Below are positions 4,694 through 23,255 of a stretch of DNA of 64,000 nt, piece by piece. The notes below the pieces were generated by a model. The model saw only the letters and a program-made list of their open reading frames with translations, made no database searches and was not told the DNA's origin. The stretch is taken from the NCBI GenBank assembly GCA_016873655.1, contig VGWI01000002.1, positions 25,357 to 89,356 on the forward strand, in the 5' to 3' direction. Each line of letters begins with the position of its first letter. Within the stretch, counting starts at the first letter, position 1. This stretch comes from Lentisphaerota bacterium. Lineage in GTDB: Bacteria; Verrucomicrobiota; Kiritimatiellia; UBA8416; VGWI01. Position numbers and translations under genes: made by a program.

Positions 4694-4788
4694 GTGCTTG
4701 CCCCGGAAGAGGAACAGAGAACTTGCCTTGCCGTATCCACAGCGGTTACGCTCGGCGCCCTGCAAACACGTTGATGGATGAAAGAAGC

Positions 4789-5607
4789 ATGATCCCCACC
4801 AGGAAAACCGCCGCGCTCCCGTCAGGAACGGCCCTTGCCGCCTGCGTCCTGCTCCTCTTTTCCGGCTGCGGCAGGCGCGAAGGGCACGCGGTGAACGTGA
4901 TGGGTTCCACTTCGGTCCAGCCTTTCGCCGAACTGGTCTCCGAAGAATACATCCGCCTGCACCCGGACAAACGCGTTGAGGTGCAGGGCGGCGGGTCAAC
5001 GGCAGGAATCCAGGCCCTGGCAAGCGGGCTGGCGGAGATAGGTATGTGCTCGCGCAGCCTGAAACCGCAGGAGGCCTCCGATGCCGTGCCCCTGACGATC
5101 GCACGCGACGCGCTGGCGATCGTTGTGCACAGAAGCAACCCGATATCGGATCTCTCCATCCAGCAGCTTCGCGAGGTGTTCGCCGGCCGCGTCGCCGACT
5201 GGAAGGACGTCGGCGGAAAGCCCGGCCCGGTCCGGGTAATCACTCGCGAGGAGGGGTCCGGAACGAGGGAAGCCTTCACCCAACTCGTGATGGCCAAGGC
5301 GCGGATATCCGACCGCGCCCTGACGCAGGAATCGAACGGATGCGTGCGGGAACTGGTCGAGGGCGACAGGGCCTCGATCGGCTACATGTCGCTCGGCCTC
5401 GTGGGCGACGCGGTGAAACCGGTGCGCGTTGACGATATAACGCCGACCCACGAGAACGTTCTGAACAATTCCTACAAGCTCGTTCGCCCGTTCCTCTTCG
5501 TGACCAACGAGCGCACCGGCCCGCAGGCGCGCGAGTTTATAGACTTCATTCTCTCCGACAAGGGGCAATCAATCCTCGAGGAGGAAGGGCTGGTGAGAGC
5601 GCGATGA
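4789..5607 (+). CDS. pstS: phosphate ABC transporter substrate-binding lipoprotein PstS
   Basis: A signal peptide with an LFSGC lipobox, plus PstS-family motifs GGGSTAGIQAL and TREEGSGTREAF. Confidence 0.8.
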   Translation: MIPTRKTAALPSGTALAACVLLLFSGCGRREGHAVNVMGSTSVQPFAELVSEEYIRLHPDKRVEVQGGGSTAGIQALASGLAEIGMCSRSLKPQEASDAVPLTIARDALAIVVHRSNPISDLSIQQLREVFAGRVADWKDVGGKPGPVRVITREEGSGTREAFTQLVMAKARISDRALTQESNGCVRELVEGDRASIGYMSLGLVGDAVKPVRVDDITPTHENVLNNSYKLVRPFLFVTNERTGPQAREFIDFILSDKGQSILEEEGLVRAR

Positions 5608-12399: not shown

Positions 12400-13758
12400 C
12401 TATTCGCGCCCGCGCTTCAGGTTGTGCTTCCTGATGAGCCGCTGGAGGTAGGCGCGCTCGATGCCTGCTTCCTTCGCCGCCTGCGATACGTTGCCGTGAT
12501 GGCGGCGCAGCAGATCCTGCACGTAGTCGGCCTCGAACTTGCGGACAAGGTCGTTCTTCACATCCTTGAACGGACGGTCGGCGCTGAAGTCCAGCCCGCG
12601 CGAGTCCTCTTCGGTCTTCAGAATCCCCATGTAAAGAAAGGCGCTCAGGTCTATCGGCCGTTTCTGGCTGTAACACGCTATTTCGACCAGGTTCCGCAGC
12701 TCGCGGACATTGCCGGGCCATGTGTGGTTCCGGAGCGTCTCCATCGCCTTTTCGAAGTTGGCAACCTGTCCCATCGCATCCGGCCCCAGGAAGTCCTTCA
12801 GGAACGACTCGGCCAGCACCGAAATGTCGTCCTTCCGCCTGCGAAGCGCCGGAAGCTCGATGCGCGCAATGGAAAGACGGAAGAATAGATCCTCGCGAAA
12901 GCGCCCGGCCTGCACCTCGTTTACCAGCTTCTTGTTCGTGGCCGAAACGATGCGCACGTCCACGTGGCGGACGGTGTTGCTGCCAACCCGCCGGATCTCG
13001 CGCTTCTCAAGCACCCGCAGCAGCTTCGGCTGAAGCTCGGCGCTGAGGTCGGCAATCTCGTCAAGAAAGACCGTGCCGCCGTCGGCATGCTCGAACGCGC
13101 CGACACGGTCGGTGTTTGCGCCGGTGAAAGAGCCTTTCTGGTGACCGAACAACTCGCTCTCGATCAGCTCGCGGGCAAGCGAGGCGCAGTCAATCACGAT
13201 GAAGGGTTTGTCTTTCCGGCGGCTGTTCCGGTGAATCTCCTCCGCGACCACTTCCTTGCCGGTCCCGGTCTCGCCCTCGATCAGCACGGTCGCGTCGGTC
13301 GGCGCGTAGGTCTCTATCTCGTGAAAAACCCGCCGCATCGCCACACTGCGCCCGAGCAAGGCGCCAAGCGACGTCCGTTCGCTCAGGACGAATTCACGCG
13401 TCTCCTGGAGCGGACAGAACACGATCCGCGCCTTGCCAAGCTGGATCTCGGTGCCTTGCCCAAGGTACGCCTCTGACACCCTGACGCCGTTGACGTACGT
13501 GCCGTTCGTGCTGCCGACATCCCGAACCACGTACCCGTCATCGGGGGTCATCTCGATCTCACAGTGCCCTTTGGATACGGTGTCGTCAGGCAACTGCAGA
13601 TCGTTGTCCGGAGAACTGCCGATCGTGAATGCATCCTTGTCCAGGATGAACTCCCGGCCCTGCAGACCGCCGGATACGACAAGCAGCTTCGCCTTCTTAA
13701 TCAGCATCTGCCCGCACGGGCCGGGCTGCGTAATGATGAGTGTCGGACTGTCCACCAT
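12400..13758 (-). CDS. sigma-54-dependent transcriptional activator with N-terminal FHA domain (FHA, AAA+ sigma54 interaction, HTH)
   Basis: An FHA core ([22 protein letters not shown]...STNGTYVNG), Walker A GETGTGKE, a GAFTGA-like GSFTGA, ESELFGH and a C-terminal Fis-type HTH. It lies 60 bp downstream of the lipid-like operon on the same strand. The alternative start is the Met at 13707. Confidence 0.8.
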
Positions 13759-13817: not shown

Positions 13818-14891
13818 TCAAGGGCCGCGGGATGGGATGGGAGGACGTGGAGAGCCTGTGTGGGACCGCAATTCGACCAGCGCCTCTTCGCGGGTGAAAG
13901 AGCGTTCGCCGGCGTCGGCCATCATGTCCGCAAACCGCTTGCCGGAGAAGTCGAGGTTACGGCTGACCGAGTAGACGGCGTAGTGCGAGGGGTCCATGAA
14001 TGGCCTGTCGGCATCGAAAGCGTTTGACAGGGCGGAAACCATGCGGCCGAGGCCGACGCCTGCCCACATGGGGAGGCAGACTGTCTTGAAACGTTTCCCG
14101 GCCAGGAATACGTCCGCAACCATATGCGTGAACTCGTCAATGCTCGTTCGCTCCAAGTCAACCACGTTGATTGCCCTGCCCGCGGCGGCCCTGACCGTTG
14201 CCGCGAGGAAGCAGGCCTTCGCAACGTTGCGCACATGTGCAAGCGGCCACCTGTTTGCGCCGCGCCACGGCCCAAAGTGGACGATGAAAGGTGAAGAGCG
14301 CAGAAAGGAAGCGACTCTGGAAGTCAGCGTCAGGTCCCCGACGCCCCAGACCTGCGCCGGCCGGAGGATGGAATAGCGATCGGGTTCGAGTCCGGAGCGA
14401 ACGGCTTTCTCGGCCTCGATCTTGAACGCCGGGTACGGATTGGGCGGAAACGGCGAGAGCGGCAGGGCATCCTCGTCCTGGCCGTCGAAATCCCTCAGTC
14501 CGTAGACGTCGGTGGTGGAAACAAACACCAGGCGGCCGACATCGAATTCGTGCGCCAACTCAACCAGGACTCGAACCGGGTCAAGGTTGGTCCTCCGGAA
14601 TCGGGCGGTTCGTCCGGTATCCGTCGCACGGCCGGCGCAATGCACGATCGCATCCAGCTTTCCGCCCGCGGCTGCTTCGCGGACCGTGGCGCGGAGAGAT
14701 GCCGGCACGGTGATGTCGGTTCGCAGGAACGTGGTCTTCTCCAGGCCGGCCAGCACGTCGGCGGGTCTTTCGCCCGCGCCGGGGCGGCGCCTGTGGAATG
14801 TGCCGTACGTATTCCAGCCGCGCAGCGCAAAGAGCGCCGCCGCATAGCTGCCGATGAATCCGCCGGCGCCTGTGACAAGAACGGTGTTCAC
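13818..14891 (-). CDS. NAD-dependent epimerase/dehydratase-family (extended SDR) oxidoreductase
   Basis: A Rossmann motif, [15 protein letters not shown]. It overlaps the upstream gene by 4 nt (ATGA). It is the last gene of the 7-gene operon. Confidence 0.8.
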   Translation of the reverse strand: MNTVLVTGAGGFIGSYAAALFALRGWNTYGTFHRRRPGAGERPADVLAGLEKTTFLRTDITVPASLRATVREAAAGGKLDAIVHCAGRATDTGRTARFRRTNLDPVRVLVELAHEFDVGRLVFVSTTDVYGLRDFDGQDEDALPLSPFPPNPYPAFKIEAEKAVRSGLEPDRYSILRPAQVWGVGDLTLTSRVASFLRSSPFIVHFGPWRGANRWPLAHVRNVAKACFLAATVRAAAGRAINVVDLERTSIDEFTHMVADVFLAGKRFKTVCLPMWAGVGLGRMVSALSNAFDADRPFMDPSHYAVYSVSRNLDFSGKRFADMMADAGERSFTREEALVELRSHTGSPRPPIPSRGP

Positions 14892-16183
14892 GCAATGATC
14901 CCATTCCTGCGCCCGACATCCGCAAAGACGGAAAGGGCGGCGTCTATCTCAATCTCGGTCAGTGTGCTCATTGCGCTCACTCGCAGCCTGCATTCCTTGC
15001 GTCTCACAGCCGGGTATGTGACCAGGTTCGTGAAGACTCCGTTCGCGCGCAGCTCGTTGTGGAAGGCCGCAAGTTTCTGTTCATCGCCGACGATGACAGG
15101 GATTATCGCCGACTCCGTGTCACCGGTGTCGAAACCCAGCGCCTTGAGCCCGTCGCGCAGGCGGGCGATATTCCTCCACAACCTGTCCCTGCCTGCCGCA
15201 TCTGCGCGAATGAGGCGCAATGCCTCGACGAGTCCTGCCGCCGTCGGTGCGGGCATGCTGGTGGAGAAGAAATAGGTGCGCGCGTAGTAACGCAGGTAGC
15301 GGACGACGGACGCGCTTGCCGCGCAGTAGCCGCCTATGGCGCCGGGCGTCTTGCTCAGCGTACCGCAGAGCAGATCAATCCCGCGCGTGCAGCCGAAGTG
15401 CTCGGGCGTGCCCAGACCGGTCGGGCCGACGACTCCAAGTCCGTGCGCATCGTCCACCATCACGCGTGCGCGGTGGCGCCGGGCCAGGTCCGTGATCTCG
15501 TCAAGCGGCGCCAGGTCGCCGTCCATGGAGAAGACACCGTCGGTCACTATGAGCCTGCCGCGGACGGAGTCGGGTATGCGCTGGAGCACTCGCTCAAGGT
15601 GGCGCATGTTGCGGTGCAGGTAGACCTTTATTTCGGCGCCGGAGAGGCGGCAGCCGTCGAATATCGATGCGTGGTTCGAGGCGTCGTTGACAACAACATC
15701 CCCTGGTCCGCACAGGGCGGAGATGATGCCGACGTTCGCGGAGTAGCCGCACGGGAAGAGGATTGCGTCTTCCGTTCCGTAGAGCCCGGAGAGCTCCTCT
15801 TCAACAAGGCGGTGCAGCGGAGTCGTTCCGGCGTACAGGGAAACCGCGCCCATGCCGTAGCCGTACTCGGCGCATGCCTTGATGCTTGCGGCGACAACGG
15901 CGGGATGTGTTGTCAGCGCCAGATAGGAATTGGACCCGAGCATGGTCACTTTGTGGCTGTGGCCGTCGTGCTCGCGGACCGTGCACGTGTGGGCTGCCGG
16001 CCCCTCCATTCGCAGGCCGAGCCCTTCAGTGTACGAAGCCGGGTTGGCGCCCAGGTAGGAATCAAGGGCGTCGGCCTTCGCGAAGATGTCCGCATCGCCG
16101 TCTTGCGGAATGAAGTCCTCGAAGCGCCGTTCGGTCCCGTCCTCGCCACTGTCGCCGGGCAGCTTTCCCGGTTCCTTGTTCAT
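14888..16183 (-). CDS. alpha-oxoamine synthase family PLP-dependent acyltransferase (Spt/Kbl/BioF-like)
   Basis: A class I/II aminotransferase fold with a PLP-Lys context, [17 protein letters not shown], plus SMDGDLAPL and DDAHGLG. It has an N-terminal extension of about 60 aa. The ATG at 16183 overlaps the upstream stop. Confidence 0.8.
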
Positions 16184-17397
16184 GTGGTTGCCTTTCTCCT
16201 TCGGTGGCAGCGAAGCGGAGTGTGCGAATCGCAATACACCGTGCACAGGTTGCAGTTGGTACAGCCCGACCGTTCAGCCGAGCCCGACAGAAGACGCGCC
16301 GGCAAACCAGGGTCATGGACCAGCGGTCTGCACAGCGAAACGGCATCGAGTCCGTGTTCCGAACGCGCGCGGAGCATTCCGTCCGGCGAGCGAATGCCGC
16401 CCACGGCCCAGACGGGCACAGGCACCGCTTTCCGGATGGCGGCCGCGGCCGGTACGTTGTAGTTCTCGCAGAACGGTATCAACCCGCGAAGATGGAACCG
16501 TGCGAACAGCGCCTTCCACGGCGTCCTTGCCCAGCGCGGGATACGCGCGAAGAGGGGATTGACGCACAGTGCAACATCCACCGGGCAGGCGCCGCGGATG
16601 ATGTTGAGCGCCGTCTCCATGGTTCCGTAACTCACTTCGAAGGCGTCAGCTCCGGCAGCGGCCGCGCGCCGTGCAGCGGTCACCGCGTCAGCCGTTGTCA
16701 GCCCCGGCCTGTTGTCGTCGCCGGCGCTCAATTTGACGAGGATGCCGAAATCAGGGCCTGTTTCCTCGCGGATGGCGCGCACTATTTCCTCGAGAAACAC
16801 CGGGCGGTCGCCCCAGCGGTCGCGGCGATTGTTTGTCCATGGCGACAGGAACTGGTGCACAAGGTAGCCGTGCGCGCCGTGCACCTGCACCCCGCTGAAT
16901 CCCGCCTTTTGCGCGCGCGCCGCGGCCGCGGCGAACTCGGCGACAACGCCGGCGACTTCGGAGTCGGACAGCCGGCGCACCTTCTGCCGGAAGTATGTGC
17001 ACCGGCGGGTGGACGCGCCGACCGCCTCCATTCCGGTGGCTTCATGGCGCGTCTGCCGGCCGGCGTGGGCCAGCTGCATGAACAGCGGGACGAGCGAGCC
17101 CGCCGAACGCGCAACTCGAACCGTTTCAGTCCAGGCCGGCAGCTTGTCATCAGAATCGATCCCGCACTGGCCCGGCTGCATCGCGCGGCCCTGCCGGGAA
17201 ACGAATGCAAAGCCTGTTATCAACGCGCCTGTTCCGCCCTTCACGAGTTGCGCGTACAGTTCACCCAGCGCCGGAGTAGGGAAGCCTTCGGAATCAGCCA
17301 TGCCCTCATAGGTGGCGGAGCGAACGATGCGGTTGGCGGCCGTGACCGAACCGAGGCGAAGCGGTGTTGCAAGAGACTGCGTAAGTCCGGAAGTCAT
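16180..17397 (-). CDS. Old Yellow Enzyme-family NADH:flavin (FMN) oxidoreductase / ene-reductase
   Basis: The motifs [10 protein letters not shown] and [28 protein letters not shown] are OYE signatures. The start is the Met at 17397 (ATGA overlap). Confidence 0.8.
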
Positions 17398-18398
17398 TTG
17401 CCCTCTCTTCCGGCAAGCAGCCGCTTTGCCTCCGCAACAGCTGCAAGCGCGTGCTGTCCGGCGTCGCGGGCTTCGCGCGGGCACGGCGGTGGACACGTCA
17501 TGGGCAAAGCGCGGGCGTCTGCAGCGGCAAAGAACACGCCGGCCTCGTTCGAGGGAAACGCACGGCCGATCCTCGTGAGGCCGGCCCGTGCACATTTCGC
17601 GGCGAGTGTGCCGCCGTCCCCGGCTGGAAACGAGAAGAGCAATTCGTATTCCCCCGCGCCGCCGAACAGGGCCGATTCGGGCGGCGCGCCGATTGCAGCG
17701 CAGGCCTGTTTCACTCCCTCGGAATAGGGTATCGCCGGCAGCTCCACTTCAAGGCGCATGCCTGGACTTGCGCGCCTCATCATCCACAGCGCATCCGCCA
17801 GGCCACCGCTGGTATCCGTGCCGGCAACGGCGGCTTCACGCGCCAGCGCAGCGGCGTTAACGCGCAGCTCCAGCGCCGGGGTGGGCGCCCCTGTCAGCGC
17901 GGCGGCGTTCATGTGCCCCAGGGCGCCGGAGATCCACAGATCCTGCTCCACGGCGGGAAGCACGCGTTTCAGCGGGGTGCGCGCCGCGAGCGGGCCCATC
18001 GCGAAGCCGGCATAGCGCCATTCGCCGGCTGTGCCGAGGTCGCCCCCGCACAGCGCACAGCCGGCGGAATCGAGAATGCGGGACAGCCCGCCGCAAAGGG
18101 CGGAGACGAAGTCGGCGGATACGTCGGCCGGCAGCGAAATGGAATGGAGCATGAAGCGCGGCTCCACGCCCGCTGCGAGCAGGTCGCTCAACGTCGCGAC
18201 CGCAAGATTCGCGCCCAGCAGGTCCGGGTCCGCGGAAGTGAACAGGTCCTCCTTCTCGCTGAATTCGTCCACCGTCAGGCCCCACACCGCGCCGCCCACG
18301 CGGATGAATTCGGCGTCGCTTTCGAACGGCGCGTTGAGCTGTTCCGGACTGCGCCTGAAGCGCGAAGCGATCGCCGCTATCGTTTCGTATTCGTTCAT
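17394..18398 (-). CDS. AIR synthase-related (PurM superfamily, ThiL/HypE-like) ATP-dependent enzyme
   Basis: An N-terminal ESDAEF...[13 protein letters not shown] region and a C-terminal domain typical of the PurM/ThiL fold. It is 334 aa. Confidence 0.65.
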
Positions 18399-19333
18399 GG
18401 CGCAGTTCCTTCCGGCGAAGCGGGGCCGCGCGTTCCGCAGATCAGGTCAAGGCGGCGCGCGTGCAGCTCAATACTGACCGGCAGACCGCCGTGCGAATCG
18501 CCATCGAACTCGACGGAGACCGGCCGTTCCGTGCGCATGGAGAACCTTCGGCAACTGCCGGTGAAGACTCCTTCCGCGTTCACGGCCGAACCCGCGTAGA
18601 AGGCCGGGAGAAGCGCGAGCATGCCGGTTCGGCTGCGTCCCGAGACGGTCACGACCGTCAGCAGGCCGTCGTCCGGAGACCGGTCCACACTCAGCCGCAG
18701 GCCGGAGGCGATCCACGGATTCTTGAGAACAGCCACGTGGTTCACGCCGCGGAGTTCCATGCGCCGGCCGTCCAGAAGTATCTCCGCGTCGAACCTGCGC
18801 ACGGTCGCGATGGCGCAGAGAAGCGCCATCGCCGTGCCCGCGGTGTCGCCAGTGAACCGCCGCAGGCGGTTCGCGATATCCGCCGTTTTTGCTCCCAGCC
18901 CGATGTTGCAGCCGCAGCCGAACCATGAGGTCGCCGGACCGCCGGCATTCTGGAACCCGATTGATGCCACATCAACCTTTGTGGCAAGGCCATCCAGCAG
19001 CACCTGCAGCGCCGCGGCCGGATCCGTCGGGATGGAATGAAAGCGGCAGAAGTCGGGGCTTGTCCCGGCGTACAGAACGCCCATGCGCCTCTCCGCGGCG
19101 GGCGCATCAGCCAGCCCGGCGAGCACCGCGTTGATGGTTCCGTCTCCGCCAACCGCGACAACGACATCAAACCCGGGGGCTTCGGTTGCCAGTTGCCGTG
19201 CATGGCCGAGGTCGCGCGTCACAACCGGTTCAAAGTCGGCTCCGGCGCGTTTCATGCCCTCTGTCCAGAACTTCCATCGCTTCCGGCCGCGGCCGGCGCG
19301 GGATCCGGGATTCAGGATCAACAGGTATTTCAC
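18395..19333 (-). CDS. DAGK_cat-family lipid kinase (YegS/BmrU/sphingosine-kinase-like)
   Basis: YLLILNPGSRAG plus VVAVGGDGTINAVL, the GGDGT signature of diacylglycerol kinase catalytic domains. The GTG start at 19333 overlaps the upstream stop (GTGA). Confidence 0.75.
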   Translation of the reverse strand: MKYLLILNPGSRAGRGRKRWKFWTEGMKRAGADFEPVVTRDLGHARQLATEAPGFDVVVAVGGDGTINAVLAGLADAPAAERRMGVLYAGTSPDFCRFHSIPTDPAAALQVLLDGLATKVDVASIGFQNAGGPATSWFGCGCNIGLGAKTADIANRLRRFTGDTAGTAMALLCAIATVRRFDAEILLDGRRMELRGVNHVAVLKNPWIASGLRLSVDRSPDDGLLTVVTVSGRSRTGMLALLPAFYAGSAVNAEGVFTGSCRRFSMRTERPVSVEFDGDSHGGLPVSIELHARRLDLICGTRGPASPEGTAP

Positions 19334-20619
19334 CGGTAGATGCCCAGCTTGTCGTAAACAGGCGTTCTGCCGCCGCGGTCCCAGCCGGCGATCAGTTCCT
19401 GTGTCTGCGGCCAGCGCAGCGGCATGTCGGACAGGGAGTTGCGCCGCGCTATCGCCGCGATTGCGGCGCCTTGCGTGCAGCAGAGCCAGTCGCAGCAAGG
19501 TTCGCGGAAGGCATCGCGCATCCTGGCGAGGATTGTCTCGAACGGCTCCTCGGCCACGTTTCCGAACGAGACGTTGAGAAACTCGCACGGCTGCACTTCT
19601 CCGTGCGCGTTCATGTAGAAGCGGTCCACGCCGCCGGCGGTACAACCGAGAACATCCGGCGACTCCTCGAAGACCTGCGCCGCAAGCGACGGATGGCCCT
19701 GGAAGGCGCGTGAATTGTAGCGGAGGTGCTGGGCACGGAGATGACGCAGCACGGCGGGGTCGGTCTGCATTTCCTCGCGGCGGCCGAGCCAGCGGCCTGC
19801 GGGCTTGGGATGGATGAGCTGCACGAAATCGCAGCCCTGGTCCCCTGCGAAATCCATCAGGTCCGTCAATCTGCCGTCGCGGACTTCCTGTTCGGAAAGG
19901 ACGCTGTTCACCGCGGTGACGAAGCCGTGCTTCTTGAACATCCGCAGCGCCCGGACCGCGGAACCGAAGGAGCCTGCGACGCCGGTCATTCGATCATGCT
20001 TCTCCCGGCTGGTGGAATGGACAGAGATCATGACCCCGTAAAGTCCCGCGTCTTCCAGTTCGCGCAGCATGTTTTCTTCGAGCCCGTCGCCGGTGGTGTT
20101 GACCCATATCTCGGAACGTTCATCCAGCGCCCGCATCAGGGCGATCAACCGGTCAAAGCGCAGAAGCGGTTCGCCGCCCTCGATGTCGAACATGGCAACG
20201 CCGGCGTCGCGCATGGCCACGGCCGAAGCGGCCATCAGTTCCGCGTCCATGTCCGCGCCTCGGTCCGTCCTCTGGTAGCAATGCTCGCAGCGGTAGCGGC
20301 AGGCCTTTGTCATCGAGAACACCACCGTGGTCGGGCCGGGCGGCCGCCTGACGAGTTTCGCGTCGAGCGCGTGGAAGAAGGCGGGGGACGGGTAGGCTGG
20401 CAGGTAGAGGTGCAGCTTGATGCCGGACCTGGTGCGGACGGCCTTGTTGTGCCTGAAGACGAGCAGCAGTCGGAGCGCCCGCGAAAGGAACAGGATGTAG
20501 TCCTTCGGCGACCAGCGCAGCTCGCCCATGCGGCGGGCATAGCGGAGCGCGACGCCTGCCGCTATTCGGACATACGTCCACGCCTTGGCCGGTCCGGTGA
20601 TGAAACGGCTGTCTTTCAC
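19330..20619 (-). CDS. radical SAM enzyme with C-terminal SPASM/twitch-type auxiliary cluster domain
   Basis: CRYRCEHC is a CxxxCxxC motif. The SPASM-like region is GCTAGGVDRFYMNAHGEVQPCEFLNVSFGN, and an extra CCDWLCC follows. The GTG start at 20619 overlaps the UbiA stop. The alternative start is the Met at 20529. Confidence 0.75.
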   Translation of the reverse strand: MKDSRFITGPAKAWTYVRIAAGVALRYARRMGELRWSPKDYILFLSRALRLLLVFRHNKAVRTRSGIKLHLYLPAYPSPAFFHALDAKLVRRPPGPTTVVFSMTKACRYRCEHCYQRTDRGADMDAELMAASAVAMRDAGVAMFDIEGGEPLLRFDRLIALMRALDERSEIWVNTTGDGLEENMLRELEDAGLYGVMISVHSTSREKHDRMTGVAGSFGSAVRALRMFKKHGFVTAVNSVLSEQEVRDGRLTDLMDFAGDQGCDFVQLIHPKPAGRWLGRREEMQTDPAVLRHLRAQHLRYNSRAFQGHPSLAAQVFEESPDVLGCTAGGVDRFYMNAHGEVQPCEFLNVSFGNVAEEPFETILARMRDAFREPCCDWLCCTQGAAIAAIARRNSLSDMPLRWPQTQELIAGWDRGGRTPVYDKLGIYR

Positions 20620-21608
20620 GAGCGGGCGTCCTTGTGAAGATCGAAGAGGAAGCCGATGAACACATAGCTGGCAGTGAGCAGGTACAGCGCAAGCGTGCCG
20701 TTGAAGATGGCGATCATCGTCACCTGGCCGGCCACGCAGGCGCGGATATTCGTAACCAGGCTGAAATACGTTCTGTCGCCCAGCGGATGACGGAAGTAGA
20801 GAACGGCCGTCCAGAGCTGAAGAAACAGTGTCATCACAGCGCAGAAGACGAAGTCGCGCATGAACAGCACGTCGCCCAGCGGCAGCCAACCGAGAGAATG
20901 CAGCAGCACGAAAAGGAGCGTTGGGAGAAATGCGCCGGCGACGCCGGCATAGCGGGCGGCGTTCAGGCCGTACTTGACGACAAACGTCTTCTTCCCCGCC
21001 GCCCTGTCACCCCTGTAGTCCTTGAAGTAGGTATAGTATGTCATCAGCGCGTTGATCAGCGCCACCAGCGCGAAAGCCGATATGCGGTTGCTGGTGAAGA
21101 GCGGCGTTGGAGGCGGTCCTGAGGCAAGAAACCCGTATGCCATGCACGTCGCGATGGAGAGTCCGAAGACCGCGTTTCCGACAAGCGACCATGCCTTCGC
21201 GTATTCGTACAGGATGTTCAGAAGCACCCCGATCACGGCGGGAACAACGGACCACGGTTCGAGGAACCATGACACGGCTCCGACCAGGAAGAGGAGCCCG
21301 ACCGAGACAAGCATGGCGGCCCCGGGGTTGAGTTCGCCGGTAACCATCGGCCTGTTGGGTGCGTTGATGCGGTCTTCCTTCAGTCCGAAGAAGTCGTTGA
21401 TGACCTGGTTGACGCCGTAGCTGAGGAACAGCATGCCGAGTATCAGGGCCTTGCGCCCCGCCCCCCCGGCGCCGGGGCAGCAGAAGTCATAAAAGGATAC
21501 GCCTATCCAGCCGGCTATGCCGGTGACAAACGAGAAGTACAGCCGCATCGAGCGGATGTAAGCGAAGATGAAGGCGAGGGTGGAGCCGGAGCCGGAGCCA
21601 ACATTCAT
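20616..21608 (-). CDS. UbiA-family aromatic/alkyl prenyltransferase (ChlG/DGGGPS-like subfamily)
   Basis: It has 8-9 TM helices. The Asp-rich motif VINDFFGLKEDRINAPNRPMVTG resembles the NDxxDxxxDxINxPxRP motif of chlorophyll synthase and DGGGPS. It is the first gene of the operon. The long N-terminal part of ORF 20616..22064 is discarded as non-coding. Confidence 0.8.
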   Translation of the reverse strand: MNVGSGSGSTLAFIFAYIRSMRLYFSFVTGIAGWIGVSFYDFCCPGAGGAGRKALILGMLFLSYGVNQVINDFFGLKEDRINAPNRPMVTGELNPGAAMLVSVGLLFLVGAVSWFLEPWSVVPAVIGVLLNILYEYAKAWSLVGNAVFGLSIATCMAYGFLASGPPPTPLFTSNRISAFALVALINALMTYYTYFKDYRGDRAAGKKTFVVKYGLNAARYAGVAGAFLPTLLFVLLHSLGWLPLGDVLFMRDFVFCAVMTLFLQLWTAVLYFRHPLGDRTYFSLVTNIRACVAGQVTMIAIFNGTLALYLLTASYVFIGFLFDLHKDARS

Positions 21609-21764
21609 TGCCGCATTGAACCCTGAAGCGGGAGCGGCTTCAATCGCTTTCTTTTCGTCCCGGCAACCTGACGTGGCAGGCTGGACTGAAAGGCCAGGAA
21701 CGAATATTGTGGCCGGGTTGTTCGAATGAAGTTCTGATGCGGCGCGTGTCGGAGGACGGCGGTC

Positions 21765-23255
21765 ATGCCTCGAATAGACGAGTTCCTGCGGATAATGCTC
21801 GAGCGGGGGTCCAGCGACCTTCACATGGTAAGCGGGCACAGGCCGTACCTGCGCGTCTCCGGAGACGTGACGCCGATCGAGGAGATGGCGGCCCTCTCCA
21901 GCGATGAGATCCGCGGGATTGTCGAGGAAATAGCCCCGGAAGACAACCGCGCCCAGTTCAGCGCCGATTGGGACACGGACTTCGCCTACCAGAACTCGGA
22001 CCTCGAGCGCTTCCGTGTGAACTGTTTCATGGATAGCAACGGCGCGGGCTCTGTCATCCGCCACATACCGGGCGCCATCCCCACTTTCGACCAGCTCGGC
22101 CTTCCCCAGGTCCTGCGCGAGATGTGCCTGCTGACCAAGGGCCTGGTGATAGTCACCGGGCCCACGGGCTGCGGAAAATCAACCACCCTCGCGGCCATGA
22201 TAGACCTCATCAACAGGACAAGGGCCGAGCACATTGTTACGATCGAGGACCCGATCGAGTTCATGCACAAGCCCAAGATGTGCCTCATCAACCAGCGCGA
22301 AGTTCACAAGCACACGAAGAGCTTCTCGGCAGCGCTGCGGGCTGCCCTGCGCGAAGACCCCAACATCGTGCTCGTGGGCGAAATGCGAGACCTTGAAACC
22401 GTGGAAATCGCGCTGGAAACCGCGGAAACCGGCCACCTCGTGTTCGGCACGCTGCACACAAACACCGCCGTCTCCACGATCGACCGGATCATCGACAAGT
22501 TCCCGTCCGGCGAACAGAACCAGATACGCACGATGCTCGCCGATACGCTCAAGGGCGTTGTCGCCCAGACACTGTGCAAACGCCGCACCGGCGGACGCGT
22601 TGCGGCAATGGAGATCCTGGTGGTCACTTCCGGAATAGCTTCGAACATACGCGACGGGAAGTCGCACCAGATCGCCTCTTCGATCCAGACAGGCGGCGCG
22701 CTCGGAATGTGCCTCTTCGAAGACAGCCTTTTTGCACTCGTACGCGACGGGGCAATAACCACGAAGGAAGCGTATCTGAAGGCCGTGCGGAAAGACCTCA
22801 TACGCAAGAAGCTGCTCGACGCCGGCTTCCCGCTGGACGTCGGCGCGGACGAGATCCGCAGGAACGAGGGCAGCCTGGAAGAAGGGACATCGGCCCGCCC
22901 GGAAGAGGACATGCTCACGGAGTGCAGGGAGCGTCTGCGAACCGACCCCGACAACGTGGACTCGCTGTGCGACGCGGCATGGATCATGTCCGCCGGCGGC
23001 GATCTGAGCCTCAGGAAAGGGCGCGATGCCGTGAAGCTGGCCGAGCGCGCGGCGAAACTGACCGGCGGCAACGACATGCACGTCCTGATAGTTCTCGCCG
23101 CCGCGCAGGCGGAAAGCGGCAACTTCAAACGGGCGGTTGGTTTCGCGACCCAGGCGCTGGAACTGGCCGAGATCGCGGGAAGCGACAGCATTGCCGAACA
23201 ACTCCGCGCGCACCTGGCCACGTATGAGCAGAACCGCGCGCTGGGCCGGACCTGA
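21765..23255 (+). CDS. pilT: type IV pilus retraction ATPase PilT-like with C-terminal TPR-like extension of about 150 aa
   Basis: Walker A GPTGCGKSTT and PilT motifs (His/Asp boxes, GMCLFEDSL). The residues after about 345 are alpha-helical and TPR-like. Confidence 0.8.
   Translation: MPRIDEFLRIMLERGSSDLHMVSGHRPYLRVSGDVTPIEEMAALSSDEIRGIVEEIAPEDNRAQFSADWDTDFAYQNSDLERFRVNCFMDSNGAGSVIRHIPGAIPTFDQLGLPQVLREMCLLTKGLVIVTGPTGCGKSTTLAAMIDLINRTRAEHIVTIEDPIEFMHKPKMCLINQREVHKHTKSFSAALRAALREDPNIVLVGEMRDLETVEIALETAETGHLVFGTLHTNTAVSTIDRIIDKFPSGEQNQIRTMLADTLKGVVAQTLCKRRTGGRVAAMEILVVTSGIASNIRDGKSHQIASSIQTGGALGMCLFEDSLFALVRDGAITTKEAYLKAVRKDLIRKKLLDAGFPLDVGADEIRRNEGSLEEGTSARPEEDMLTECRERLRTDPDNVDSLCDAAWIMSAGGDLSLRKGRDAVKLAERAAKLTGGNDMHVLIVLAAAQAESGNFKRAVGFATQALELAEIAGSDSIAEQLRAHLATYEQNRALGRT

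Follow-up and report, generated by a model that had tools for sequence, protein, structure and literature searches.

A 64,000-nucleotide stretch of DNA from a Lentisphaerota bacterium (contig VGWI01000002.1, positions 25,357 to 89,356; hereafter the window) carries a compact cassette of seven genes, 7.8 kb in size, which appears to be a lipid biosynthetic operon that brings known enzyme families into a new combination. Its product may be a phosphorylated two-chain, sphingolipid-like lipid, formed via a relay of two kinases that would convert a hydroxyl to a monophosphate and the monophosphate to a diphosphate, a proposal that is tentative but deserves to be taken seriously. Domain assignment with Pfam and NCBIfam gave the following seven genes, all on the minus strand and listed from the upstream end of the cassette:

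20616..21608, minus strand, UbiA-family transferase, 330 aa (PF01040, 86.6 bits; gathering score 34.2)
19330..20619, minus strand, radical S-adenosylmethionine (SAM) enzyme, 429 aa (PF04055, 62.7 bits)
18395..19333, minus strand, DAGK_cat + YegS_C kinase of the DgkB/YegS type, 312 aa (81.5 and 69.5 bits)
17394..18398, minus strand, AIRS/ThiL-like PurM-superfamily protein, 334 aa (PF00586, 48.8 bits; TIGR01379, 106.9 bits)
16180..17397, minus strand, old yellow enzyme (OYE)/FadH-type FMN oxidoreductase, 405 aa (PF00724, 154.9 bits)
14888..16183, minus strand, pyridoxal phosphate (PLP)-dependent alpha-oxoamine synthase (AOS), resembling serine palmitoyltransferase (SPT), KBL and BioF, 431 aa (PF00155, 172.8 bits)
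13818..14891, minus strand, extended short-chain dehydrogenase/reductase (SDR; epimerase/3beta-HSD/OleD-like), a presumed ketoreductase, 357 aa (PF01370, 92.7 bits)

All six junctions among these genes, from 21608 down to 13818, are 4-nt ATGA or GTGA stop/start overlaps, and public contigs of identical sequence, with genes called independently, show matching protein lengths (330, 429, 312 and 334 aa) and overlaps. This arrangement is consistent with translational coupling, while falling short of proof. The initial annotation of this DNA had described the UbiA, radical SAM, DAGK_cat and ThiL/PurM-like genes as consecutive and coupled at 17394-21608, with the radical SAM gene between those for UbiA and the kinase. 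That order holds, with a 4-nt overlap at each junction, and the four genes are real; the unit as then drawn was too short, however, as the OYE, AOS and SDR genes follow with 4-nt overlaps of their own.

A locus scan taking one genome per species yielded 78 non-redundant loci from other genomes, whose open reading frames (ORFs) were searched with the seven window proteins. These loci span around 15 phylum-level groups, with hosts in the Kiritimatiellia, Lentisphaeria/Victivallales, Verrucomicrobiota, Planctomycetota, Elusimicrobia, Armatimonadota, Omnitrophota, Sumerlaeota and Zixibacteria, as well as Desulfovibrio, Alphaproteobacteria, Gastranaerophilales, Auribacterota, Myxococcia, Fusobacteriaceae, Fibrobacteres and Halobacteroidaceae; they include a cultured strain, Elusimicrobium posterum Dip510, and complete genomes (NZ_CP152277.1, OW818698.1 and OY781964.1). 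The order UbiA-radical SAM-DAGK-ThiL-like-OYE-AOS-SDR (type 1, the window type) is identical in 37 of the 78 loci, and most of the remainder show the same order broken by contig ends, or without the OYE gene. A second architecture (type 2), present in 13 loci and mostly in Omnitrophota, runs UbiA-OYE-AOS-DAGK-ThiL-like-KS-SDR-radical SAM, where KS is a FabF-like ketosynthase, and the Myxococcia locus has an extra fatty acyl-AMP ligase (FAAL) in the cassette. Grouping of this kind is far beyond chance. The kinase and ThiL-like genes are adjacent in every locus where the contig permits (76 of 76), with an overlap at their junction in 90% of 73 loci; the pair on which the initial annotation had centred therefore recurs elsewhere as a conserved, coupled unit.

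The genes flanking the cassette vary between loci, UbiA orthologues are 67-83% identical across phyla, and in the Armatimonadota copy (L004/L005, 4384-5986 and 9283-10020) two phage-integrase-family genes lie directly upstream of UbiA, which together suggest that the cassette is horizontally mobile and self-contained. In the same copy the kinase and ThiL-like genes are separated by two small inserted ORFs, of which one is Imm8-like. Near the cassette in the 78 loci there is no recurrent prenyl diphosphate synthase, acyl carrier protein (ACP), head-group transferase or thiamine gene; only a MarR regulator and a small protein with four transmembrane segments recur beside it. Searches of the full-text literature for the enzyme names in combination turned up no account of the cassette, and a lead from the Lipocone paper proved irrelevant.

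The second phosphorylation of the relay would fall to the PurM-superfamily protein, whose affinity to ThiL was judged from profile scores and a fold search. The window protein scores 106.9 bits on the NCBIfam thiL profile (TIGR01379), compared with 34.8 on selD and 17.3 on hypE, and thiL was the top match in 20 of 20 diverse members, with a best E-value of 1e-34 versus 1e-12 for selD, 6e-6 for purM and 1.5e-4 for hypE. When the family profile was compared with solved structures, ThiL came first (E 3e-23), followed by PurM, HypE and SelD, and an AlphaFold2 model (pLDDT 92) submitted to Foldseek returned Aquifex aeolicus ThiL at the top (E 4e-24, TM-score 0.74-0.81), with HypE and SelD next (E ~1e-20, TM-score ~0.7). 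Profile, solved-structure search and fold thus agree with the initial annotation in likening this protein to ThiL rather than to HypE, SelD or PurM. The ATP/Mg residues of ThiL we take to be D27, D43, D71, D207, D210 and S209 (A. aeolicus numbering). Alignment to 1vqv equates D43, D71, D207 and S209 with the invariant D44, D72, D195 and S197 of the ThiL-like family, so that these ATP/Mg residues are retained; D27 probably corresponds to D28, outside the aligned stretch, and type-2 proteins also keep D210, and with it the complete ThiL motif DTSDG.

This family nevertheless has invariant residues peculiar to itself (E50, D51, W39, W127, W155 and GAGEYELLF), the thiL equivalog cut-off is missed by all 20 members tested, and in the loci examined it is never found outside the cassette context. 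On these grounds it is a family of its own and not a ThiL orthologue, and its substrate is almost certainly something other than thiamine phosphate. In comparison with ThiL (TIGR01379; PDB 3c9r/3c9t/1vqv), it shares the PurM-superfamily fold, the ATP/Mg ligands D43, D71 and D207 with Ser209 and, presumably, a reaction in which a phosphate monoester receives the gamma-phosphate of ATP; it differs in its score (107-115 bits, cut-off 184), in the Gly that replaces D210 in type 1, in the family-specific invariants, and in always coming after a lipid kinase and never lying beside thiamine genes. More than 300 close relatives (43-63% identity) were found; among clusters at 50% identity, 212 representatives matched at E<=1e-30, with ~5,000 more at E<=1e-10 that presumably include ordinary ThiL. 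Neither the window nor 1.3 Mb of fetched loci holds a PurM-superfamily paralogue, and no fusion of the ThiL-like domain was seen among the 150 best representatives. A HypE-style catalytic Cys was considered and rejected, the invariant Cys306 of type 1 (PPPCPR) being Asp, Ala or Ser elsewhere in the family.

The kinase that precedes it has an invariant GGDGT motif across the cassette family, and its profile finds Staphylococcus aureus DgkB as the best match in the PDB (5e-35). A sphingosine-kinase-like identity was discarded, as SphK1 was matched only in the N-terminal nucleotide-binding part (6.5e-9) and DgkB is far closer. With S. aureus DgkB, YegS and BmrU the protein shares the DAGK_cat and YegS_C pair together with GGDGT, DgkB being the best solved relative, whereas it differs in a TIGR00147 score of 98.7 bits, below the cut-off of 118.65, and in a Y-GTSPDFC motif of its own. 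Its domains and motifs identify it as a soluble DgkB/YegS-type lipid kinase.

Alone among the cassette proteins, the UbiA-family transferase has hydrophobic segments typical of transmembrane helices, several of them. It reaches no NCBIfam equivalog (the best being PRK12884 with 72.6 bits, cut-off 269, while PRK12882 gives 60 bits, cut-off 296), and among solved UbiA proteins in the PDB its family profile matches only digeranylgeranylglyceryl phosphate (DGGGP) synthase (DGGGPS; 6m31, 7e-14) and ChlG (1.4e-6). The archaeal DGGGP synthase is thus the closest solved relative, sharing NDxx…DRINxPxRPxxxG, YxxxK and the second DxxxD; YxxxK and the second Asp-rich motif (FKDYxGD) are kept in at least 90% of the UbiA sequences. 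That enzyme is an integral membrane protein acting on a phosphorylated single-chain lipid, and the cassette UbiA is predicted to be of the same nature. It departs from DGGGP synthase in the first Asp-rich motif, which reads NDxxGxxED in 64 of 64 orthologues (a few with N in place of G; NDFFGLKED in the window): D66 of the Methanocaldococcus jannaschii enzyme (MjDGGGPS), a Mg ligand within NDxxDxxxD (D66xxxD70), is never Asp in these orthologues but Gly or Asn, and D180 is Tyr in all of them. The window protein is 100% identical to P0121 of a Lentisphaerae metagenome-assembled genome (MAG). Neither geranylgeranylglyceryl phosphate (GGGP) synthase, nor glycerol-1-phosphate dehydrogenase, nor geranylgeranyl diphosphate (GGPP) synthase is linked to the cassette in the 78 loci. 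Taken by profile and motif, the transferase is DGGGP-synthase/chlorophyll-synthase-like, with a non-canonical first motif.

The three genes that complete the operon point to the making of a long-chain base. Against the PDB, the best match of the AOS is Sphingobacterium SPT (3a2b, 269 bits), followed by KBL (253 bits); it scores 277-337 bits on the SPT equivalogs, missing all three cut-offs (500-670), and 359-361 bits on KBL/BioF, with no equivalog reached. The PLP Lys, the His of HAS and the Asn of SNxYL, whose roles in SPT (the His stacking on PLP) have been described (PMC10196870), are kept in at least 90% of 60 sequences. The SDR, with conserved TGxxGxxG and YxxxK motifs, best matches the OleD 2-alkyl-3-oxoalkanoate reductase in NCBIfam (65.4 bits), is also HpnA/3beta-HSD-like, and gives no threonine-dehydrogenase signal there. 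Catalytic motifs are retained in all of the cassette families.

In NCBIfam the OYE best matches the N-terminal domains of mycofactocin OYE_2, NamA and BaiCD, and its C-terminal CxxCxxCxxxC Fe-S motif is kept in at least 90% of 59 sequences. In the window this C-terminus (16180-16260) reads as a ferredoxin-like CxxCxxCxxxC…C, and the FAD/NAD(P)H domain of FadH/BaiCD-type enzymes is absent, so the electron donor must be a separate protein. The OYE is optional, being missing from around 10% of cassettes. Short remnants persist at its site in such cassettes (L001:10969-11058, L023:10970-11344 and L046:10596-11339; a 29-aa ORF or fragments of ~111-114 bits), which indicates that its loss is secondary and that the six-gene form is not ancestral.

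The core pathway of bacterial sphingolipid synthesis involves Spt, an epimerase-family reductase (in Caulobacter, for instance, CerR), and ceramide/sphingosine kinases of the DAGK_cat family. The cassette resembles this pathway in bringing together an SPT-like AOS, a reductase of the extended-SDR family and a lipid kinase of the DAGK_cat family, but has no ceramide synthase, dedicated ACP or acyl-ACP synthetase, adds the UbiA, radical SAM, ThiL-like and OYE proteins, and has an AOS that falls under the SPT cut-offs.

The radical SAM enzyme has a ~95-aa helical N-terminal extension and six invariant Cys residues, namely C107, C111 and C114 of CxxxCxxC together with C326, C345 (Gx4C) and C380. 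The initial annotation had named it a radical SAM-SPASM protein. The first half of that name stands, with CxxxCxxC invariant, whereas the full seven-Cys SPASM motif, with its two auxiliary clusters, is lacking, and the PF13186 SPASM match is borderline (21.9 bits versus a cut-off of 21.5); as only three further Cys are invariant, the protein looks twitch-like, with one auxiliary cluster, rather than a full SPASM enzyme. Profile and Foldseek searches returned generic relatives only (SkfB, SuiB, BlsE, DesII, viperin and MoaA; query-normalised TM-score <=0.55). A likeness to Tes/GDGT-MAS was considered and dropped, the profile E-value being 0.0085 and 7tol lying outside the top 50 Foldseek matches.

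From these family memberships a sequence of steps can be proposed. The SPT-like AOS would join a fatty acyl thioester to an amino acid, giving a long-chain alpha-amino ketone, which the extended SDR would reduce to a sphingoid-type amino alcohol, the optional Fe-S OYE adjusting an adjacent C=C. The soluble DgkB-type kinase would phosphorylate a hydroxyl of this amino alcohol, and, if thiamine-phosphate kinase is a guide, the ThiL-like enzyme would add a second phosphate onto the first. The DGGGP-synthase-like membrane UbiA would then link the phosphorylated lipid to a second hydrophobic chain, and the twitch-type radical SAM enzyme would perform an O2-independent modification. With an SPT-like synthase, a reductase and an OYE encoded in the operon, the lipid alcohol is probably made in situ, as a long-chain amino alcohol; that the chemistry concerns long chains is suggested by the type of the kinase (DgkB-like) and of the AOS (SPT-like), by the membrane nature of UbiA, and by the FAAL and KS that variant cassettes add. 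The idea, put forward in the initial annotation, that the operon makes its own lipid diphosphate is accordingly plausible as far as the relay is concerned, given the coupled kinase pair and the ThiL-likeness of its second member, whereas the use of that diphosphate as the UbiA donor is unsupported.

Several observations weigh against the two-kinase relay and the product proposed for it. The thiL equivalog cut-off of 184.15 bits lies above the scores of the window ThiL-like protein (106.9) and of a type-2 member (115.5), type-1 proteins such as that of the window have Gly at ThiL D210, and we know of no PurM-superfamily enzyme with a lipid phosphate as its substrate. The sequence of the AOS does not reveal which amino acid and which acyl group it uses, nor can the radical SAM step be assigned from generic relatives. 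An ordinary prenyl diphosphate donor for UbiA would leave the second kinase without an obvious role, and a cassette diphosphate in the same position would be chemistry unprecedented for the UbiA family. Finally, one MAG locus (L065) has the order DAGK-ThiL-like-SDR...radical SAM-UbiA, and neither an AOS nor an OYE occurs there within 21 kb. As a sign that the amine is dispensable this locus is weak, the ORFs in the gap being unrelated and the AOS possibly lying elsewhere in the genome. Two ORFs break up the cassette at L065:12557-13746, one Cys-rich and zinc-ribbon-like, the other STAS-like.

Within the proposed pathway, the UbiA step could run with either polarity. Were it to follow DGGGP synthase, a housekeeping polyprenyl diphosphate would be the donor and the phosphorylated amino alcohol the acceptor, giving an N- or O-prenyl sphingoid phosphate in which the 2-NH2 of sphinganine-1-phosphate stands where GGGP has its sn-2 OH; a diphosphate head group would then be made by the ThiL-like kinase, or this enzyme would precede UbiA to improve binding. 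The restriction of the UbiA profile to DGGGPS and ChlG among solved proteins argues for this polarity, as do the JGI labels of the orthologues (GGGP geranylgeranyltransferase) and the fact that the Asp motifs of MjDGGGPS chiefly bind the phosphorylated acceptor, and it would account for a sphingoid-making cassette that has no N-acyltransferase or ceramide synthase. It gives, however, no necessary role to the universally coupled second kinase, no GGPP or farnesyl diphosphate synthase is linked to the cassette, and N-prenylation by a UbiA enzyme is, to our knowledge, without precedent. We regard it as possible, though doubtful, and lean slightly towards it over the opposite polarity.

That opposite polarity is the model of the initial annotation, in which the lipid diphosphate of the cassette serves as the alkyl donor for UbiA and the non-isoprenoid chain passes to an acceptor made elsewhere. 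Both kinases would thereby have a clear role, UbiA is the sole cassette family that binds diphosphate substrates, the Mg ligand of its first Asp-rich motif is replaced in all 64 orthologues, and no prenyl diphosphate synthase was found in or near any cassette. In other respects the UbiA strongly resembles DGGGPS, down to DRINxPxRP and the second DxxxD, and DGGGPS and ChlG, the only solved proteins its profile matches, both use ordinary prenyl diphosphates and O-nucleophile acceptors, so that the donor role is not supported. The UbiA-family donors known to us are likewise allylic prenyl diphosphates or, in decaprenyl-phosphate phosphoribosyltransferase, phosphoribosyl diphosphate (PRPP), and the cassette has no gene for making the acceptor. 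A saturated alkyl diphosphate, such as phytanyl diphosphate, is moreover a dead end, as it cannot give a stabilised carbocation (PMC9385802). A 4-ene kept or made by the BaiCD-like OYE beside the 3-keto group might yield an allylic alcohol and hence a feasible diphosphate donor, but with the OYE missing from about a tenth of cassettes this rescue would not be universal. If true, the model would mean ether or N-alkyl lipids made without any prenyl diphosphate; we consider it unlikely, and hold the same view of its fullest form, a first PurM-fold lipid-phosphate kinase that turns a non-isoprenoid sphingoid phosphate into a diphosphate serving as the alkyl donor for a divergent DGGGPS-like UbiA.

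A different reading holds that the PurM-like protein is not a kinase, and instead uses ATP to activate a carbonyl or amide oxygen for cyclisation, dehydration or amination of the amino-ketone, as in PurM, PurL and HypE. The superfamily is chemically diverse, HypE and SelD lie close in fold, and the sub-threshold thiL score, the missing D210 equivalent of type 1 and the family-specific acidic pair E50 and D51 would all sit comfortably with such chemistry. Yet the thiL profile lies 60-70 bits above that of any other subfamily in 20 of 20 members, type-2 proteins retain the complete DTSDG, Cys306 of type 1 is not family-wide, making HypE-like Cys chemistry unlikely, and the constant partner is a kinase that makes phosphate monoesters, which fits a ThiL-type reaction; the non-kinase reading is therefore rather improbable.

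It is more improbable still that the two kinases salvage free polyprenol, converting it through the monophosphate to a diphosphate donor while the AOS, SDR and OYE make the acceptor. Such a donor would be chemically sound, and a two-enzyme route of this kind, feeding UbiA enzymes through VTE5 and VTE6, is established in plants (PMC9782597; PMC9385802). Free polyprenols, however, are no known bacterial pool here, a prenyl diphosphate synthase would be simpler in a biosynthetic operon, and among solved structures the kinase is nearest to soluble bacterial diacylglycerol kinases of the DgkB type. We know of no DAGK_cat prenol kinase. Least credible of all is a housekeeping thiamine-phosphate kinase, or a cassette that acts on small molecules through KBL/TDH-like aminoacetone chemistry: JGI does annotate many members as thiamine-monophosphate kinase, and the AOS scores nearly as well for KBL as for SPT, but the gene is locked into the cassette in 76 of 76 loci from around 15 phylum-level groups with no thiamine genes recurring nearby, every member tested misses the thiL cut-off, the SDR lacks a threonine-dehydrogenase signal, and the FabF-like KS, FAAL, DgkB-like kinase and membrane UbiA point to long chains.

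For the two-kinase relay, the nearest functional analogue is phytol salvage in plants and cyanobacteria, where phytol kinase VTE5 and phytyl-phosphate kinase VTE6, as separate enzymes, carry a lipid alcohol to its monophosphate and diphosphate for the UbiA enzymes VTE2 and ChlG (PMC9782597). The analogy is one of reaction and not of descent: VTE5 and VTE6 fall into families akin to dolichol kinase and COG1836 (PMC9782597) rather than to DAGK_cat and PurM, and their substrate is an allylic isoprenoid. The nearest homologues are instead ThiL, DgkB, DGGGPS and bacterial SPT, and in each case membership fails on at least one defining feature.

Two further features of the window adjoin the cassette:

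12400..13758, minus strand, activator with FHA, sigma-54 AAA+ and HTH_8 domains (Pfam), located downstream of the SDR gene at a distance of 60 nt
21609..21764, intergenic region between UbiA and a divergent PilT-like gene, the presumed promoter region

The flanks of the cassette in the window are unrelated to it, with an exopolysaccharide priming sugar transferase and the FHA/sigma-54 activator downstream, and a PilT-like ATPase, a tail-specific protease and DapF upstream. The activator is a possible local regulator, lies outside the conserved cassette, and does not recur beside it in other loci. The adjacent activator gene raised the idea of a sigma-54 promoter 5' of UbiA, which was rejected, as 21609-21764 holds no convincing -24/-12 site; no convincing sigma-70 consensus was found in this region either. 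The PilT-like T2SSE ATPase (21765-23255, plus strand, 496 aa) has its ATPase domain only at residues ~82-272, and a C-terminal extension of ~150 aa resembles a helical, TPR-like repeat by eye. The G+C content of the window is ~64%, and many spurious long ORFs lie on the strand opposite the cassette; those antisense to it at 15059-16462, 16204-17727, 17451-18599 and 19726-20637 (plus strand, 300-500 aa) were taken as high-GC shadow ORFs.

In other genomes, a MarR-family gene lies directly upstream of UbiA in 12 loci (L073, at 4707-5345, L016, L018, L054, L059, L060, L063, L070, L071 and L079-L081). A predicted four-helix membrane protein of ~125 aa, with no Pfam match and absent from the window, adjoins the cassette in 10 loci of both architectures, either before UbiA or after the radical SAM gene (L051:5634-6242, L056:666-1043, L060:6550-6939, L061:173-577, L062:6556-6933, L070:14592-15002, L075, L076, L079 and L081), and carries the motif GLYD..LG..FL…PPNHxGY…NP.ANRNLI.YG.LLK.

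Genes have been identified for only a handful of prenol and prenyl-phosphate kinases, the majority still lacking one, and both archaea and animals have such activities with no gene assigned (PMC9782597, PMC9385802). A ThiL-fold lipid-phosphate kinase, if that is what the cassette encodes, would be a new answer to the long-standing lack of enzymes that convert lipid monophosphates to diphosphates. The cassette is widespread in hard-to-culture anaerobes, among them Kiritimatiellia, Victivallales, Elusimicrobia, Omnitrophota, Armatimonadota and Planctomycetota, and its compactness, together with a cultured host in Elusimicrobium posterum Dip510, makes the proposed pathway directly testable. Were the cassette diphosphate to prove the alkyl donor, these anaerobes would be able to make two-chain lipids with ether or N-alkyl linkages independently of O2, by a route that merges sphingolipid with archaeal-type chemistry. 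By combining a head module of sphingolipid type with a radical SAM enzyme and a DGGGPS-like transferase of archaeal type, the cassette may give rise to a new lipid class at the divide between bacterial and archaeal lipids.

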